Shown here: positions 3,124 through 11,141 of the stretch, in pieces | Position numbering within the stretch: the first letter of the stretch is position 1 | How the letters are laid out: every line of letters begins with the position of its first letter | IMG/VR virus record: IMGVR_UViG_2693429524_000013 | DNA: 13,512 nucleotides | Direction: 5' to 3' (one strand) | Source: a virus | Lineage: Duplodnaviria; Heunggongvirae; Uroviricota; Caudoviricetes | Translations under genes and position numbers: made by a program | Notes under the pieces: generated by a model | What the model saw: only the letters and a program-made list of their open reading frames with translations | Databases searched by the model: none | Told to the model about the DNA's origin: nothing

Positions 3124-3459
3124 TTATTGTGCAACACGCAAATCGCCATTGCTGGCAGCGATAACAGCGGCTAAGCCGTCTTTATCCACGTAGGCCGGAT
3201 TGATGTAGCAACCTTTGTTCGCAACAACGATAAAAGCGTCACCAACCTCAGCACGTTCTACAACCAGCAGCGGAGTTTTATCTGTGTGCGTTGCTTTAAC
3301 GAAGGTCTCAACCTCGCCAGCCTCAGTAACCACAACAACAGTGCCAGCCGGAATCTCAGCTTTAACTTTGTTTTTAATCTCAACGTCGCGAATACTAAAT
3401 TGCTCATCTGCGGCGTATGAAATGATGTGTCCGCGTGTGCGGATAGTCATATCTCTCAT
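3124..3459 (-). CDS. head decoration (capsid-stabilising) protein, gpD-like / DUF2190-like (111 aa)
   Basis: 111 aa beta-rich protein encoded immediately upstream of the gpE-like capsid gene, matching the lambda D-E order. AGGTGA SD precedes ATG 3459. The segment LLVVERAEVGDAFIVVANKGCYINPAYV resembles decoration-protein cores. Confidence 0.6.
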   Translation of the reverse strand: MRDMTIRTRGHIISYAADEQFSIRDVEIKNKVKAEIPAGTVVVVTEAGEVETFVKATHTDKTPLLVVERAEVGDAFIVVANKGCYINPAYVDKDGLAAVIAASNGDLRVAQ

Positions 3460-3584
3460 TTGATCACCTGCGATTTAAATTAACTCCCCTCAAAGAGTTC
3501 CGGTATAACCTCTCAAACCGCGACAGGCTCGGGCCGAAAAGTTATGCCGGAAATCTAAAGGGAAATTGATACAAGGAAAGGGAG

Positions 3585-3614
3585 ATAGCCCCGCACCGTC
3601 CAAGCGGGGGCTAT
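3585..3614 (-). terminator. GC-rich stem-loop in the leader of the capsid operon (possible attenuator)
   Basis: ATAGCCCCGC (3585-3594) pairs with GCGGGGGCTAT (3604-3614) with one bulge. On the minus strand it is followed by CUCCCUUUCCUUG, which is only moderately U-rich. Confidence 0.3.
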
Positions 3615-3787
3615 TCCATATGGGGAAAACCAACAACAGTTGGCTGATAGTTCACAGTATGGTTACGGTTACTAGAGAGCACTATCACGAAAGGCACTCC
3701 CCCGAATCAGTTCAGGCTGCGGTCACATCAGCGGGGAAATACCTTTCGGGATAGCTACCCACACAGAAAACCCGCAAAAGAAAACTG

Positions 3788-3796
3788 TGTGGATAA
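3788..3796. promoter_or_regulatory. consensus DnaA box (TGTGGATAA = TTATCCACA)
   Basis: Exact 9/9 match to the R-type DnaA box. It is a single copy in the non-coding leader. Confidence 0.3.
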
Positions 3797-3943
3797 CTAG
3801 CCCAATAGGAGAATTAATCGACCACTCAACGATGATCAGGGTAGTGTTATTTATAAGGCGGCACCGCTACCTGGTCGCCGTTACTTTGGAGGAAAATACG
3901 GCAAATCAAGATCTTCTCACATTGATATTGACGCCATATGTAT

Positions 3944-3972
3944 ATTATATCAGTATTTACTCACATTGTCAA
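3944..3972 (-). promoter_or_regulatory. perfect-consensus sigma70 promoter firing leftward toward the capsid operon
   Basis: The minus strand reads TTGACA (3972-3967), a 17-nt spacer, then TATAAT (3949-3944), with a TGn extended -10 (ctgaTATAAT). The -35 context is TTGACAAT, as in the three rightward promoters. Confidence 0.75.
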
Positions 3973-4195: not shown

Positions 4196-4213
4196 AAATC
4201 AACTTCTCGCAAA
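4196..4213 (+). repeat. 18-nt motif AAATCAACTTCTCGCAAA, copy 1
   Basis: Identical to 4739-4756. It ends exactly 11 nt before ATG 4225. Confidence 0.85.
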
Positions 4214-4224
4214 AGGTGATAGTT

Positions 4225-4347
4225 ATGGGTATCAAGAACAGTGCCAGCGCATGGCAAAAGGCCAGGTTTCATCACCCACACATTGTTAAGGCAATTGAGG
4301 TGGTTGGAGTGTTAGCCCTGATGTTAGCTCTGTGTGTGGAGGTGTGA
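4225..4347 (+). CDS. 40-aa small membrane peptide (MGIKNSASAWQKARFHHPHIVKAIEVVGVLALMLALCVEV)
   Basis: Not in the ORF track because it is under 60 aa. AGGTGA SD lies 7 nt upstream. It has a hydrophobic C-terminal helix. Its stop is followed 1 nt later by another SD-led ATG (4349, 22 codons). Confidence 0.45.
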   Translation: MGIKNSASAWQKARFHHPHIVKAIEVVGVLALMLALCVEV

Positions 4348-4449: not shown

Positions 4450-4710
4450 ATGACGGGGGCTAAAGATATCAGGAGACTGAGGGAAGAGCTGATAGCTGAA
4501 ATTAAAGCTAAGGCAAAGCAAATGGAGATAGCCGCACAAATGGATGTAGCGGAACAGATGTACAAGATGGTTGAAGAGGGAACACCACGACAGGTTATCG
4601 CTAAAACCTTCGGTGTGGGGATCGCCACCGTGCACAGAAGGCTGAAAGCCTATGCCGACTACCACAACATTGAGAGAGGGGAGGATGGGAGATTTAAGAA
4701 GAATAAATAG
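4450..4710 (+). CDS. small coiled-coil plus C-terminal HTH DNA-binding protein (86 aa)
   Basis: GAGGAG SD is present. The segment TPRQVIAKTFGVGIATVHRRLKAY is a resolvase/sigma-region-4-style HTH. Its ATG overlaps the stop of an 8-codon uORF (4427-4453). GGAGTTTATGA is duplicated at 4420-4430 and 4443-4453. Confidence 0.75.
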   Translation: MTGAKDIRRLREELIAEIKAKAKQMEIAAQMDVAEQMYKMVEEGTPRQVIAKTFGVGIATVHRRLKAYADYHNIERGEDGRFKKNK

Positions 4711-4738: not shown

Positions 4739-4756
4739 AAATCAACTTCTCGCAAA
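4739..4756 (+). repeat. 18-nt motif AAATCAACTTCTCGCAAA, copy 2
   Basis: Identical to 4196-4213. It ends exactly 11 nt before ATG 4768. Confidence 0.85.
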
Positions 4757-4767
4757 GGGGTACCACT

Positions 4768-5289
4768 ATGTTATTCCAGAAAGACAAAGAATCAGTAAAT
4801 AAAAGGCTTTTTAAAGAACTGGTAAAAATGTTCTTTCAGTACACTGCAGCGTTTTTGATAGCCGGGCCTTGGTTAATGGCTATCTGTTTTTACCCTGCTA
4901 CCTTGTTTATTGGCAGTAGCAAGTTCGGCGATGGCCCGTTTCATGTGGATATTGGTTTTATAGATTCTCTCCTGATCCGTCCTATAAATGCTGTTCTCAA
5001 TGCTTTCTACTTCCCAACTAGTCTAGAGGGGTGGGCGGTAACCTGGGGTGTTTTAGGCTTAGCATATGTATATTGGTTGGTTGGCTTTTTGTGGGGTGCA
5101 ATCTGTGCTCTCCTCGATATTGATACAGGATCAAGCCGTAGGAGTAGTGGTAATAATAGCGGAGCGGGTGTATATGCACACGTAGGTACCAGAGGGGTAA
5201 GTATCACCGCAGGTACCCGATTCGCTGGCGGCTGGCTGAGTATAGGCAAACGCGGCGTTAGTTGGAGAAAAAGCAAAAAACTGTTCTGA
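4768..5289 (+). CDS. integral membrane protein (173 aa) with a Gly/Ser/Arg-rich C-terminal tail reminiscent of DUF4236
   Basis: Two long hydrophobic segments are present: FFQYTAAFLIAGPWLMAICFYPATLFI and WAVTWGVLGLAYVYWLVGFLWGAICALL. The tail GTRGVSITAGTRFAGGWLSIGKRGVSWRK resembles DUF4236. A clean terminator follows. Confidence 0.75.
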   Translation: MLFQKDKESVNKRLFKELVKMFFQYTAAFLIAGPWLMAICFYPATLFIGSSKFGDGPFHVDIGFIDSLLIRPINAVLNAFYFPTSLEGWAVTWGVLGLAYVYWLVGFLWGAICALLDIDTGSSRRSSGNNSGAGVYAHVGTRGVSITAGTRFAGGWLSIGKRGVSWRKSKKLF

Positions 5290-5342: not shown

Positions 5343-5414
5343 GAGTAATTCCACTCCCTGAGGTCGTGATCAATTCCACACCCTACCCCCTGATCAATTA
5401 ACCCCTATTTAATG
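5343..5414. repeat. three ~24-bp direct repeats (TGATCAATTCCAC-type)
   Basis: AATTCCAC occurs at 5347-5354 and 5372-5379. TGATCAATT occurs at 5367-5375 and 5391-5399. A related 17-mer CCCCTGATCA(A/T)TTAACC occurs at 5387-5403 and 6284-6300. Confidence 0.6.
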
Positions 5415-5446
5415 GGTATTTAATGCCTATTTATTGATTTAATCCG
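5406..5446. repeat. AT-rich 11-bp phased repeats (TATTTAATG x3-4), resembling a DNA-unwinding element
   Basis: TATTTAATG at 5406-5414 and 5417-5425, TATTTATTG at 5428-5436, ATTTAATCC at 5438-5446. The period is 11 bp. Confidence 0.55.
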
Positions 5447-5514
5447 TTTTATGCCACAACCGCCCGGTTGACAGAGTAAGAGAGAGGGTGTAACCCTTTT
5501 TCGTAATACTAATG

Positions 5515-5530
5515 AAATCAATAAGTTAGC
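5515..5530 (+). repeat. 16-nt motif AAATCAATAAGTTAGC, copy 1 (matches IHF consensus WATCAANNNNTTR)
   Basis: Identical 16-mer at 13259-13274. The core AATCAATAAGTTA fits WATCAA-N4-TTR. Confidence 0.6.
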
Positions 5531-5584
5531 TTAATAGGCCTTTTCTCTATTTTTGTCAAATTTAACATACCCTAAAAAACTGCA

Positions 5585-5618
5585 AAATCTGGCTGCAAGA
5601 TTATCTGCAGCTGGATTT
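5585..5618 (+). other. 34-nt imperfect hairpin
   Basis: AAATCTGGCTGCA pairs with TGCAGCTGGATTT. There are 13 pairs, including two G-T pairs that are wobble only if the plus strand is read as RNA. Confidence 0.4.
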
Positions 5619-6520
5619 CTTACACCTCATTTTGTGGTATCACCCTGACTAGTTTGTGCATAAATTGAACAGTTTTTAACATTTCCTCTTCACCTGGTAA
5701 CCACACAAAAAGCTAAAAACGAGGCACAGATAATCTTAGAGGCCTATTTTCTTGTTATCACTCTGGAAACGTCGTAGAAGTGATTTTGATGAAAGGCGAC
5801 CTACCCTATTACACCCCCATTTTTTGTTATCACAATTGCATCCTGTGTGGCTATATGGCTATGTGCTGAAAGCGGTCTCGGGTGTGGGTGTCAGAAATAT
5901 CCATTAGCGGTATTTGAGCTTATGGGTAACTCGTCTGAGGTGCCAGGCAGGCGCTCCCCTACCTCCCTTTTTTCTTCTAACAATTCTCAAATATCACACC
6001 ACTGCCCACCACGTTGCTATTATGTTAATTCTTAAGCTTTGCTGTATGTTGTGCACATTATTTATTCAGGTGGCTGTACGTAAATTCTGTGCCCACTGAT
6101 CATGATTTTTAAATCAGATTTTGTAGTGCGGTTTCTTAGTGCTGATAAGATCTATTATGTTAAATGCAATTTTCCCAACCCTTCAAATCAATGACTTACA
6201 TGTAAGCATGCACTAACACCACACACAGCACATTAGACGTATAGATGGCTATATCCCACATATTTGATTGTTTTGTAGTCATTCCCCTGATCATTTAACC
6301 AGTATAGTTTGTTATCTGCAGACCACAAAATCGGAATTTACATCTGATTAACATAATCTGTTAGCATGATCACCATTACCCACACAACAATAACCCCATG
6401 TAAGCCTCTTCAGGCAATTTATCGGCGTGTTGGTGTGAACAGTCTTTCATGTTCTTTATGTATCAGTTGTCCTGTGTGGTGATTTGGTGGACTGCCCCAG
6501 GGGCCATACTTATGATGCCC

Positions 6521-6559
6521 GGTCAACATAGCTGTTGATAAAATCAACGGGTGTTGACC
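6521..6559. promoter_or_regulatory. twin palindromic operator-like sites
   Basis: TCAACA-tagc-TGTTGA (6523-6538) and TCAAC-gggt-GTTGA (6544-6557), with centres 20 bp apart. Outer arms GGTCAACA and TGTTGACC also pair. Confidence 0.45.
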
Positions 6560-6632
6560 TGCATATTTCCCACACATGAGAGGAAATCAGAGCAAAGAGA
6601 GAGGAGAGAGGTTTGTTAGTCACATATGGTGA

Positions 6633-6664
6633 TTTGAGCTCATCTCAAACCTTCTACGAAGGCC
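6633..6664 (+). repeat. two-hairpin module, copy A
   Basis: TTTGAG-ctcat-CTCAAA (6633-6649) abuts CCTTC-TAC-GAAGG (6650-6662), followed by CC. The 5' flank is TCACATATG. Confidence 0.65.
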
Positions 6665-6719
6665 TTTGCTAGTCAAAATCAAGTCACATTAGAGTCAAAT
6701 CAGATGCAATCAATCCCCC

Positions 6720-7051
6720 ACCTGTTGGGATTTCCCACATGTTCAACCATACACAGGAGCTAACCTGTTGGGATTTCCTACAACCCCTTTCAGTCATACT
6801 CAGGCACCACACCCCGGTAAATATTTCCCTACTACCCCGGAGAATTTCTCCGCACTACCTGTAAAGAATTTTCACACCTGTGTGTTTATACAATCATACT
6901 CTCCTGTTTTGCAGTCATTGCACCCATGATACACAGCCCTAACCTGTAAAATATTTTTACTACCCCGCCAATAATACGGCCCATACCTGTAAAATATTTT
7001 TACTACTACCTGTCAAAATCTTTTACTACTACCTGTAAAAATATTTGACAC
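6720..7051 (+). repeat. array of nine ~21-23 bp iterons, consensus ACCTGTAAAATATTTTTAC(TAC); candidate replication origin or centromere
   Basis: Units start at 6720, 6763, 6813, 6836, 6857, 6942, 6985, 7008 and 7031. The last three abut with exact 23-bp phasing. Each unit has an internal dyad. Confidence 0.8.
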
Positions 7052-7480: not shown

Positions 7481-7616
7481 CTGGCTGCATTAACTAGTTT
7501 GAGTAGTGTAATTGCATTACCTGATGCTCAAATCGCGTTGTAGGGCCTCTTATGATGTTTGAGTTTAACACCCTCCAAAGTTTTAACAAAAAGTGCTCTC
7601 CCTCCATTGTGGGCCA

Positions 7617-7646
7617 TTGACAATCTTATTGCATAAATGCTATAAG
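7617..7646 (+). promoter_or_regulatory. strong sigma70 promoter P1 (rightward)
   Basis: TTGACA (7617-7622), 18-nt spacer, TATAAG (7641-7646), with TGc extended -10. The -35 context is TTGACAAT. Confidence 0.6.
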
Positions 7647-7744
7647 TTATTCTGTTTTTGACACGGTAGGGGACATTAATAATGCTTACCCCTTTGCTGT
7701 GGACTTGTTTGTACCTATAGCTCGCCTAAATGATAATGATTCCC

Positions 7745-7774
7745 ATTGACAATTGGTTGTCAATATGATAAGAT
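7745..7774 (+). promoter_or_regulatory. sigma70 promoter P2 (rightward) with an overlapping 20-bp palindromic operator
   Basis: TTGACA (7746-7751), 17-nt spacer, TAAGAT (7769-7774), with TGa extended -10. The operator ATTGACAA-ttgg-TTGTCAAT spans 7745-7764. Confidence 0.6.
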
Positions 7775-7936
7775 TATAGATAGTGGGAGAAACAGATCCG
7801 GAGGTCAACGTGGAACTGAGCGACGCTATAGCGATCATCAACCTGGCTGTAATGTGGTGCGGTGTTGCCTACATAGCCGGAGTAACTGCAATCGACAACC
7901 TTGAAGAAAAAATGATAGATAAATACAAAAAGATTG

Positions 7937-7965
7937 TTGACAATCTCGCAAATAGCTGATAAAAT
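7937..7965 (+). promoter_or_regulatory. strong sigma70 promoter P3 (rightward)
   Basis: TTGACA (7937-7942), 17-nt spacer, TAAAAT (7960-7965), with TGa extended -10. The spacer contains TCTCGCAAA (7944-7952), the core of the 18-nt motif. Confidence 0.7.
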
Positions 7966-8016
7966 ATAAAGCATAGGGTAATTCTCATCATAGTGAATTT
8001 TCCTTTAATGAACTGG

Positions 8017-8044
8017 CGGGAGCTATTAGTTCCCGTTTCTTTTT
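8017..8044 (+). terminator. rho-independent terminator/attenuator between P3 and the first early gene
   Basis: CGGGA (8017-8021), 9-nt loop, TCCCG (8031-8035), then TTTCTTTTT. It lies ~50-70 nt downstream of the predicted P3 start and 44 nt upstream of ATG 8088. Confidence 0.6.
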
Positions 8045-8087
8045 AACCCTATATCGCACAGGCGGTGAGCTAACAGGAGATTGAATC

Positions 8088-8297
8088 ATGGCTAAAACCG
8101 GACCGATAAGCCAGCTGGTAAACTGGACTACTGACGAAATCGTCGAGAACGTGCTTAAAGGTAACTTTCGCAAAACTTCCGTTTATGCATTTATTCGAAA
8201 ACATAAAGGAGAATATCCACACATTGAAGCGGCAATAGAAAGATTAAACTTTATTAAACTTGAGCGCCAGCTGGAAAGATATAAACATCTGATTTAA
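8088..8297 (+). CDS. small early protein (69 aa), possible Cro/excisionase-like DNA-binding protein
   Basis: AGGAG SD lies 8 nt upstream. It is the first gene after the tandem promoters. The function call is weak. Confidence 0.7.
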   Translation: MAKTGPISQLVNWTTDEIVENVLKGNFRKTSVYAFIRKHKGEYPHIEAAIERLNFIKLERQLERYKHLI

Positions 8298-8317
8298 TAA
8301 ATAATTGTGAGGGAATT

Positions 8318-9202
8318 ATGGCAAACAATAAACTGGGGGCACATTTCACCCCCATTTTTAAACGTTTTATCAAGTATAATTTTGAAAATCCAATTGCAAA
8401 AACTACAACAGGCAAAGAGAGATTTAATTTAAATGCGACGGAATTGATAATTTACGGGGAAATGGTTGGCTTTCATTTAAACGGCAAAGAAATATTCATC
8501 TCGGAGCAGACCTTAGCAGATGATTGGGATTTTTCAAGACCAACGATTATTAAAGCTATTAAATCTCTAGTAAATGCTGGGATTATTTCTAAAGATAACC
8601 GGAAAGGCAAATCTAACATTTACAAACTGTTAATTACACCTGAGCAGTTTGATAAAATGTGCGATGAGCAGGGTATTAAAACCTTAGACAGTGTGGGAGA
8701 CAGCAAAGAGGCACCTGCTACACAGGCCCAAGATAATCAACAGGAAGCCCCAAAACAAGCCACACAGCAGCCTGAAAAGCCCGAGGCAATGCAATCCCCT
8801 TCCCAACCTAAAAAAGAACACAGAGAACGCCGTAGAGACGCTGGCAAACGTGAAATAGATGAGCACGGTTATCCGATTCTGACAAGCGATGAAATGAATG
8901 CCAGATATAAAGTAATTCAGGCCGCATTTAAAGATCAGAAGAGAATTAAATTATCTGAATTGCGTGATACATTTTACGGGCCGGAGGTGATGGATAAAAT
9001 TAAAGGCACTATTCCTGATAAAATCTGGAAAGAGGAAGATTACTGGCACCTGACAGAGCAGGCCCTTAAGGTAGCTCAACACGTGGTTAAAAGAGGCAAA
9101 TCAATTATTATTGATTCTATTAGTCATGGCTATGATGCACCGAAAGAAAGGTTGTGGAACAACTGCAAGCTTGTAAAAGGCGAATTGACAATTACAAAAT
9201 AA
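8318..9202 (+). CDS. replication initiator candidate: N-terminal winged-HTH (lambda O / replisome-organiser-like), Gln/Pro-rich linker, C-terminal domain (294 aa)
   Basis: The N-terminal segment ISEQTLADDWDFSRPTIIKAIKSLVNAGIISKDNRKGKSNIYKL is a classic wHTH of phage/plasmid initiators. A low-complexity linker APATQAQDNQQEAPKQATQQPEKPEAMQSPSQPKK follows. The three-part architecture resembles lambda O. Confidence 0.6.
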   Translation: MANNKLGAHFTPIFKRFIKYNFENPIAKTTTGKERFNLNATELIIYGEMVGFHLNGKEIFISEQTLADDWDFSRPTIIKAIKSLVNAGIISKDNRKGKSNIYKLLITPEQFDKMCDEQGIKTLDSVGDSKEAPATQAQDNQQEAPKQATQQPEKPEAMQSPSQPKKEHRERRRDAGKREIDEHGYPILTSDEMNARYKVIQAAFKDQKRIKLSELRDTFYGPEVMDKIKGTIPDKIWKEEDYWHLTEQALKVAQHVVKRGKSIIIDSISHGYDAPKERLWNNCKLVKGELTITK

Positions 9203-9240: not shown

Positions 9241-9387
9241 ATGTATGGCGATTTTGATTATTACCTGGAAAAGGAAAAATATTTTGAAGATGAACTATCA
9301 CAACATTTTTCATATTGGGAAGAATATTGTGGTTGGTTAGCTGAAGATCCAGCAGATGAAGAAAATGATTCTGACATCCCTTATTAA
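9241..9387 (+). CDS. 48-aa hyper-acidic, aromatic-rich early protein (track ORF 9154-9387, trimmed to ATG 9241)
   Basis: AAGGA SD lies 9 nt upstream of ATG 9241; the longer form would overlap the upstream gene by 49 nt. The sequence is MYGDFDYYLEKEKYFEDELSQHFSYWEEYCGWLAEDPADEENDSDIPY, with 16 of 48 residues Asp or Glu. Confidence 0.55.
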   Translation: MYGDFDYYLEKEKYFEDELSQHFSYWEEYCGWLAEDPADEENDSDIPY

Positions 9388-10955: not shown

Positions 10956-11141
10956 ATGAATACCTACGAAAAGATTTATCAAAAATTAAAAAGTGATAAC
11001 AATGCTCCCGTCATCAAGGGCGGGGCTTCTTCCTCTGGTGACCTCTCAATCGAAGAGCTTGCGGAGAAATATAATATTGATAAAGAGGCCCTGAAAAGAG
11101 CTATTTCATTATCAAAATCTTTAAGACAGGGCGAGGTGTAA
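10956..11141 (+). CDS. 61-aa protein immediately upstream of the tape measure gene (HTH-like segment LSIEELAEKYNIDKEALKRAI)
   Basis: It starts 1 nt after the upstream stop. Its stop overlaps the SD of the tape measure gene. Confidence 0.6.
   Translation: MNTYEKIYQKLKSDNNAPVIKGGASSSGDLSIEELAEKYNIDKEALKRAISLSKSLRQGEV

Follow-up and report, generated by a model that had tools for sequence, protein, structure and literature searches.

A candidate same-strand antisense RNA ahead of the replication operon of a small circular phage-derived plasmid of Escherichia coli

The stretch of DNA analysed here (hereafter the window), filed in IMG/VR as the virus record IMGVR_UViG_2693429524_000013, carries on its plus strand a compact regulatory locus. 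It is composed of three tandem promoters (P1, P2 and P3), a 49-codon gene (ORF49) between P2 and P3, a terminator-ended unit of about 73 nucleotides (nt) directly after P3, the replication (rep) operon and, behind it, the small gene orf48. Comparison with complete records indicates that the 13,512 bp of the window, instead of being cut from a large phage genome, make up an entire small replicon, a circular, phage-derived plasmid of Escherichia coli of about 13.5 kb. Our subject is the unit that runs from P3 to the terminator, which is most likely an unannotated RNA gene (its product is called the P3 RNA below) and not merely a leader. The comparisons draw on 22 related loci (designated by L numbers) from complete plasmid records, assembly contigs and metagenomes, many of the per-feature counts being based on 19 elements.

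The three rightward promoters share the −35 string TTGACAAT. In P1 (7617–7646), this string lies at 7617–7624 and is followed by an 18-bp spacer, a TGc extension (TG at 7638–7639) and the −10 hexamer TATAAG (7641–7646), with a predicted start near 7653. P2 (7746–7774, −35 string at 7746–7753) and P3 (7937–7965, −35 string at 7937–7944) have spacers of 17 bp and TGa extensions (TG at 7766–7767 and 7957–7958, respectively); their −10 hexamers are TAAGAT (7769–7774) and TAAAAT (7960–7965), and their predicted starts lie near 7781 and 7972. The promoter of the capsid operon, on the minus strand (3944–3972), is built as TTGACA-17-TATAAT with a TG (TTGACAAT-N12-TGATATAAT) and fits the consensus at 12 of 12 positions. 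An earlier sequence-only reading of the window had proposed that these four sites share one design; all of the strings are indeed in place, and the common format is conserved across the element family. Judged by the features of sigma-70 extended −10 promoters (a TTGACA-like −35, a spacer of 17±1 bp, the TG, an A at −11 and a T at −7), P2, P3 and the capsid promoter possess all of them, and P1 every one but the T at −7.

The pattern TTGACA-N14-16-TGNTAWRAD, which was composed after the sites were known, recovers exactly these four promoters from the window and nothing from 200 shuffles, and TTGACAAT itself occurs five times against 0.75 expected. A generic promoter scan scored the capsid promoter 12/12, P3 11/12 and P2 10/12, all with the TG, and missed P1 because its −10 is TATAAG, without the −7 T. 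Generic promoter-like matches are not enriched overall (24 in the window, 26.2 in shuffles), so that the signal is specific to the four sites. P2, P3 and the capsid promoter are found in every locus that covers the region, with an invariant −35 and an invariant TGnTA..AT; the −35 of P3 and its TGATAAAAT are unchanged in 22 of 22 loci. P1 is an optional module, present in 15 of the 19 elements and gone as a block in the remaining four, and its −7 position is G or A, never T, in all 15 copies. The fifth copy of TTGACAAT, at 9185, was considered as a promoter or operator and discarded, as it has no −10 and occurs, inside coding sequence, only where one particular type of Rep C-terminus is encoded.

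The sequence-only reading had placed the tandem promoters before the first early gene, at 8088. This does not hold, since ORF49 (7800–7959) precedes 8088: a conserved gene of 49 codons between P2 and P3, with the Shine–Dalgarno (SD) sequence GGAGG at 7800–7804, a GTG start at 7810 and a TGA stop at 7957–7959. Every relative has it as a called or annotated gene, which several RefSeq records list as WP_157794903.1. Among its 17 distinct DNA versions, third codon positions account for 17 of 29 variable sites, and the ratio of non-synonymous to synonymous polymorphism (pN/pS), 0.21 in the coding frame, amounts to 2.30 and 1.49 in the two alternative frames. The 49-aa protein has a hydrophobic N-terminal helix and a charged C-terminal one, and its homologs occur only on these 13–14 kb plasmids or contigs. 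ORF49 is thus a conserved coding gene for a predicted membrane protein, and its expression is the presumed job of P2. P3 overlaps the last eight codons of ORF49, the TGA stop of which provides the TG of the P3 extended −10. Third positions vary in 0 of the 14 codons at the P3 −35 and the A-rich 34 nt upstream of it, against 13 of 31 elsewhere in ORF49 (Fisher test, P = 0.004). This part of the gene is therefore under a second constraint, as expected for a working promoter with an upstream element.

Initiation at P3 would produce an RNA of about 73 nt (7972–8044), predicted to fold into a weak 5′ hairpin (SL1, about 7975–8004), a mostly unpaired A/U-rich linker (about 8005–8014) and a terminator hairpin (8015–8037) with a U-tract to 8044. 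That a terminator stands here, about 44 nt ahead of the ATG at 8088, had already been noticed, and it proved sound: the 10-bp stem (−13.4 kcal/mol) lies 56 nt behind the end of ORF49, is followed by 8 U in 9 nt and was also found by a generic scan. It has the features of an intrinsic (Rho-independent) terminator, including a conserved structure, the stem being kept through G.U/A-U changes and a 4-nt loop indel. The P3–terminator unit measures 73–77 nt in 19 loci and 96 nt in the other three (L004, L010 and L023), where a wholly different sequence follows P3 and likewise ends in a terminator. The ten homologous variants all retain both hairpins despite loop changes and swaps of the inner SL1 stem (AAUUC/GAAUU or CACUA/UAGUG). 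With a promoter and a terminator of its own, the predicted P3 RNA forms a discrete unit, as base-pairing small RNAs (sRNAs) do. The whole window matched no Rfam family at gathering thresholds, the C4 antisense family (phage P1 c4/P4 CI type) included; a hit to the L20 leader in 7500–8150 (searched at E up to 10) was dismissed as spurious, reaching 20.8 bits of the 58.7 needed and resting on the terminator. As a side observation on the RNA 5′ ends, the non-homologous 96-nt RNA begins with CAGUGGGAGAAAUCC... and shares AGUGGGAGAAA with the ORF49 5′ untranslated region of the window (7781–7800), and a short GGG...UCC hairpin opens all P2 and P3 transcripts. These shared 5′ ends suggest duplicated promoter-proximal modules or a common 5′ stabiliser.

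The rep operon (8088–9202) consists of a gene for a 69-aa protein (8088–8297) and the gene for the Rep initiator (8318–9202). The assignment of a replication operon to this place by the sequence-only reading is borne out by the match of Rep to HTH_36/DnaD-like initiator families. The Rep cassettes are highly variable (38–100% identity), and the Rep homologs, which form roughly 100 clusters, are located almost exclusively on 13.3–14.4 kb contigs of E. coli, Shigella and E. albertii. On the plus strand, the generic scan returned no further promoter-like site from P3 (7937) to 8973, and the 69-aa gene, rep and the genes behind them therefore appear to depend on read-through of the terminator. Neither the minimum free energy (MFE) fold nor the centroid fold contains a helix competing for the 5′ arm of the terminator. 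Attenuation of the rep operon is a plausible second role of this same terminator, and its antitermination by a protein or an RNA is possible.

Behind rep lies orf48 (9241–9387, plus strand), the presumed regulated gene, whose 48-aa product is very acidic and ends in DSDIPY. A small gene follows rep in 21 of the 22 loci, in versions of 48, 52–54 or 62 aa, and homologs of orf48 were found in this element family only. Searches of Pfam, NCBIfam, PHROGs and PADLOC with ORF49, orf48 and the 69-aa protein gave nothing informative. The small post-rep proteins end in DSDIPY or in DSCIPY/DSAIPY, which resemble the C-terminal tip DDDIPF of E. coli SSB, and in L015, which has no small gene, Rep itself ends in ...EDEYTNDSAIPY. 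These endings suggest an SSB-tail mimic linked to replication.

The evidence for a function of the P3 RNA comes from its complementarity to the start of this small gene. When each element was searched as a whole, the longest exact complement of its own P3 RNA fell on the SD of the small post-rep gene in 14 of 19 loci; these top complements are 11–19 nt long and lie on the same strand, 1.2–1.7 kb downstream of the P3 RNA. In the window, the best plus-strand duplex partner of the P3 RNA is the segment 9217–9254, which covers the SD (AAGGA) and the AUG (9241) region of orf48 and pairs with about 7979–8015 of the RNA. Both partners change together between elements. In class A, that of the window, the RNA linker UAAUGAACUG faces the target AGUUCAUCA; in class B (L001 type), UAGUAGACUG faces CAGUAUUCUA; in class C (L006/L008/L011/L013 type), AAACAAAAAU faces AUUUUUGUUU; and in class D (L009, L019 and L020), AAUUAACUG faces CAGUUAAUU. 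The class D target belongs to a different gene, of 52–54 aa, and an insertion in the RNA pairs with codons 3–5 of that gene.

Over eight distinct RNA/target pairs, a gapless helix of 21 bp is 92.3% paired, and 10 of its 21 pairs have changed on both sides (24 cells). None of 500 shuffles matches the observed pairing or the covariation score, and sliding one partner by 1–3 columns lowers the pairing to 41–64%. Cognate duplexes range from −28 to −36 kcal/mol, and non-cognate ones average −21. The class of the RNA is that of the target in 20 of the 21 loci that have the small gene, and this match persists across differing replication cassettes: class B accompanies Reps that are 288, 298, 299 and 306 aa long, and an additional gene may be present or absent. 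Even the non-homologous RNA of L004 and L023 follows the rule, in that its longest helix in the element with G.U pairs allowed (15 bp, two of them G.U, rank 1) covers the AUG of the 62-aa gene that these elements carry at the position of orf48. Across the elements compared, the sequence of the predicted P3 RNA co-evolves with the translation start of orf48, in four homologous classes and one non-homologous pair. An accessible seed and compensatory changes, as expected of a base-pairing sRNA, are both found in the P3 RNA/orf48 pair. A short RNA of about 70 nt had been mentioned in the sequence-only reading as one of two outcomes of termination, and that option is now strongly backed, the RNA having a co-varying target. 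A type I toxin–antitoxin arrangement was also considered and rejected: the product of the target orf48 is acidic and not hydrophobic, and the hydrophobic ORF49 has no notable complementarity to the RNA.

Several observations weigh against the P3 RNA being a regulator of orf48. In the window alone, the duplex with orf48 (−27.7 kcal/mol) is unremarkable, the mean best value for shuffled RNAs being −27.1 kcal/mol; the case therefore rests on the covariation across elements. There, the shuffle control overstates independence, because the related sequences are close and partly linked. In L010, the non-homologous RNA stands with a class D target and does not pair with it, and L015 has kept a diverged RNA and has no orf48. 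The duplex energy of the non-homologous RNA is equalled by 23% of windows, so that the ranking of the longest helix was used instead. Within the P3 RNA, an alignment with MAFFT and RNAalifold yields a single compensatory pair in the hairpins; this scarcity of intramolecular signal stems from the two SL1 forms using different registers. Finally, the start sites, the termination and the existence of the RNA are predictions from sequence, and the same applies to how efficiently termination occurs, to an action in trans and to repression as the direction of the effect.

With these points weighed, we still consider it likely that the P3 RNA is a same-strand antisense sRNA that blocks ribosome binding to orf48, and that its terminator also throttles the rep operon. 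The near-consensus sigma-70 extended −10 promoters would fire rightward, P2, and P1 where present, transcribing ORF49. Transcripts halted at the terminator would be released as a free small RNA of 73–77 nt with two hairpins. Its linker and the 3′ arm of SL1 would pair with the SD/AUG region of orf48 and block its translation. A minority of transcripts would read through, and no source of mRNA other than these is visible for the 69-aa gene, rep and orf48. As one set of promoters would supply both the repressor and its target mRNA, the ratio between the two would be set by the terminator, which would limit the expression of rep and fix a large excess of repressor RNA over target. Any factor that raises read-through could then lower the repressor and raise the target simultaneously.

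The same complementarity could, however, operate inside the read-through transcripts themselves, which is a further point against an action in trans. The P3 region would then be a leader and attenuator working only in cis, with a terminator that does no more than throttle or regulate read-through into rep and a long-range 5′–3′ pairing that masks orf48 within the same mRNA until the leader is displaced or cleaved. The position of the terminator 44 nt before the first gene of the rep operon, with no other promoter visible, is in keeping with this, and so is the fact that the RNA and its target share strand and transcription unit in every case. Moreover, the fold of 7972–8087 also allows the U-tract to pair with the 69-aa gene's SD. 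Yet a hairpin of this stability followed by a long U-tract should free most transcripts, two hairpins with a U-tail are typical of trans-acting sRNAs, and no alternative antiterminator structure was found. Pairing across 1.2–1.7 kb, with variable cassettes in between, would also be easier in trans. On balance, we regard a function confined to cis as unlikely.

Less credit still can be given to the model put forward by the sequence-only reading, in which three early promoters in the style of T7 and T5 lead into the replication genes, a repressor binds a palindrome on P2, and the short RNA is a by-product or a sign of simple attenuation. The promoters are real, tandem and near consensus, and the 8+4+8 palindrome over P2 (7745–7764) is present in the window. 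However, this inverted form, which differs by one base, is a window-type variant carried by 3 of 19 elements, and the other 16 have a direct repeat of TTGACA instead: TTGACAAT-TGG-TTGACAAT in 11 and a second direct-repeat form, TTGACATTCTGTTGACAG, in 5. The palindrome was therefore rejected as a conserved operator. What all variants have in common at P2 is a second TTGACA-like hexamer in the spacer (TTGACA/TTGTCA, 12 bp downstream), and an AT-rich invariant block, TAAATGATAAT.ATTC (7732–7750), lies directly upstream of the P2 −35 and overlaps it. A protein may bind to this spacer motif and block. The block is the best match of the window to the Fur consensus (15/19 in minus-strand and 14/19 in plus-strand orientation), which is not significant, as random sequence yields 0.68 sites with at least 14 matches; it may function as an UP element or as a site of the Fur-box type. 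The analogy to the left end of a T7 or T5 genome fails as well, since the window is the whole of a circular plasmid-like element whose complete records are themselves circular. Considering also that this model overlooked ORF49, and that a co-varying target shows selection on the RNA sequence itself, we find it improbable.

The stretch that relatives exchange is flanked precisely by the two complementary segments, which could for this reason be imagined as an inverted repeat acting at the DNA level, as sites for recombination or cassette exchange around the variable rep module. But the complementarity covers the SD and the AUG, is imperfect, and includes interior G.U pairs, which in DNA or on the other strand would turn into A.C mismatches; the class D pairing even reaches into the coding sequence of a different gene. 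The orientation of the cassette is identical in all 22 loci, and the catalytic domain of a recombinase was not detected, as the 86-aa HTH_7 protein has a DNA-binding domain only. We thus hold such exchange sites to be very improbable. A chance resemblance of promoter strings, terminator strings and complementarity in AT-rich non-coding DNA, for which the lack of enrichment of generic promoter matches and the unremarkable duplex energy of the window might speak, is effectively refuted by a four-site pattern that never arises in shuffles and is conserved across mosaic relatives and by a complement that co-varies in five classes.

The element itself is rare. Seven E. coli records match the window from end to end at 92–94% identity, all annotated as circular plasmids, none chromosomal, and six of them sized 13.2–13.7 kb; pE275a_13 (NZ_CP035869) is an example of these plasmids. 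The element is present in 7 of 5,426 complete E. coli genomes and on numerous contigs of 13–14 kb. The leftward genes encode a neck/tail-completion protein, a Dit-like baseplate protein and the major capsid protein, and the rightward genes include, besides the HTH_36/DnaD-like replication initiator, one for a tape measure protein that is a distant relative of those of rV5-like phages. Helix-turn-helix proteins of the element are encoded at 4450–4710 and 10956–11141, and the 69-aa protein is counted with them. No terminase or portal was recognisable among the window proteins in family searches. GenBank phages gave no match to the region (megablast, blastn) or to Rep (tblastn), IMG/VR none to Rep peptide patterns or to a 33-nt conserved DNA word, and the representative genomes of GTDB none to the same word; a search of a literature library found no description of the element. 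Because of the exchange of DNA with rV5-like phages described below, the related tape measure protein and the presence of structural genes without terminase or portal, the element is probably a so far undescribed satellite of rV5-like phages that is maintained as a plasmid.

This exchange is visible in L018, a contig of an rV5-like (Vequintavirinae) phage that is 97% identical to SophiaRose/APECc02. A segment of 760 bp (L018:9758–10517) shares 99.5% identity with the beginning of the rep operon in element L002, corresponding to 8088–8852 of the window. It starts directly past the position of the terminator and contains a 71-aa gene and a truncated Rep of 173 aa, the N-terminal helix-turn-helix (HTH), DNA-binding half; inserts of this type are missing from the other rV5-like phages in GenBank. 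As judged from this identity, the segment shows a recent DNA exchange between rV5-like phages and the plasmids, and the Rep fragment may serve as a dominant-negative anti-satellite device. Another record, L016 (NZ_CP043822.1, 39,610 bp, deposited as a plasmid), is a head-to-tail trimer of the element, the copies of which differ at many small sites and have broken genes. It is either an artefact of long-read assembly or a sign of concatemeric replication.

It is tempting to go one step further and to see in the P3 RNA and orf48 an immunity or incompatibility switch of a plasmid-borne family of rV5-like-phage satellites, with the five classes as heteroimmunity groups under diversifying selection. 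We offer this extension tentatively, as one possibility among others. As long as the element is merely carried, termination would leave repressor RNA in large excess of read-through mRNA and keep the SSB-tail-mimicking orf48 silent. The ratio would flip on infection by a helper phage, or in response to some other cue that favours read-through or eliminates the RNA. Then, orf48 and rep would be co-expressed and the satellite would replicate.

Some features outside the P3 unit deserve mention. Between P1 and P2, neither a terminator (by scan) nor a stable fold (z = +0.47) was detected, and a 12-codon leader peptide with its ATG at 7687 was discarded on the basis of the alignment, being frame-shifted in L004 and having TTG in place of ATG in L006. 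The P1 RNA contains UACCCCUUUGC (7689–7699), which is complementary to GCAAAGGGGUA (4753–4763) on the SD of the membrane-protein gene at 4768. This complement is conserved in 13 of the 15 P1-bearing elements with no covariation, and an 11-mer of this kind is expected about 0.5 times by chance. The translation start regions near 4200 and 4745 (4196–4228 and 4740–4770) are direct repeats of each other. On the minus strand, 483 nt (3455–3937) separate the capsid promoter from the first ATG of the capsid operon. This leader is 93–100% identical across relatives, more than most genes, and its fold of −174 kcal/mol (z = −5.4 against shuffles) matches no Rfam family; it may be a structured regulatory RNA or an antitermination target. 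A stretch of about 1.2 kb without convincing open reading frames (5400–6600) is 80–93% conserved among relatives, and the adjoining block of iteron-like repeats (about 6600–7050) is variable.

If the P3 RNA acts as proposed, it represents a new RNA family, absent from Rfam, that joins the few same-strand, operon-internal antisense regulators of phage-like replicons (phage P1 c4, P4 CI and IsrK). Five specificity classes that stay matched while the intervening replication cassette shuffles form an unusually clean natural experiment, and the rules of sRNA–target specificity and of heteroimmunity are therefore directly testable by class swaps. The locus also offers a regulatory entry point into a rare and apparently uncharacterised circular E. 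coli plasmid of 13–14 kb. For annotation, the lesson is that strong promoters followed by a terminator in the ‘non-coding’ DNA of phage-like elements can hide a micro-gene and an RNA gene.

Among known systems, the early regions of T7 (A1–A3) and T5 resemble the locus in having several strong tandem promoters for the host RNA polymerase that point in one direction. They differ from it in that the promoter cluster here is interrupted by a gene and an RNA gene, and in that the terminator stands before the operon and not after it. MicL and DapZ are sRNAs of the 3′ untranslated region type, with a promoter inside the upstream coding sequence. Similarly, P3 lies inside the 3′ end of ORF49, and its RNA shares the terminator of the ORF49 mRNA. 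However, MicL and DapZ are chromosomal and Hfq-dependent and have unlinked targets, whereas the target of the P3 RNA lies in the next operon of the same replicon.

As in the case of the CI RNA of P4, a satellite or plasmid element here has a short RNA and a termination event ahead of its replication genes. The P4 system combines a constitutive promoter, a short leader-derived RNA and premature termination before the satellite replication operon. CI RNA brings about termination by pairing with the nearby seqA/seqC in the nascent leader, whereas termination behind P3 is predicted to be intrinsic, the complementary site is a distal translation start, and no Rfam match links the two. IsrK, from the prophage Gifsy-1, serves as an sRNA as well as an mRNA and acts both in cis and in trans (PMC12197685). 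It shares with the P3 unit the principle of a short form that acts as an sRNA and a long form that is the mRNA of the downstream genes, both from one promoter. The short form of IsrK arises by termination, acts on the read-through mRNA and activates translation on the long isoform. In contrast, the P3 pairing covers the SD and the AUG, which predicts repression, and the two RNAs have no sequence relation.

The c4 RNA of phages P1 and P7 is 77 nt long and pairs around the ribosome-binding site of ant, and its sequence specificity underlies heteroimmunity (PMC12197685). It resembles the P3 RNA in being a structured RNA of about 77 nt, encoded upstream of a target with which it shares strand and transcription unit (immI: c4-icd-ant), that pairs with a ribosome-binding region, exists in specificity variants and belongs to a plasmid-borne phage-like element. 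However, c4 is processed out of a precursor, whereas a promoter and an intrinsic terminator of its own appear to delimit the P3 RNA. The target of c4 encodes a known antirepressor, and that of the P3 RNA, 1.2–1.7 kb away and beyond rep, encodes a tiny acidic protein. As it has no sequence or structure match to the Rfam C4 family, the P3 RNA is classed as working like c4 and not as a member of that family, c4 being the functionally closest known system.

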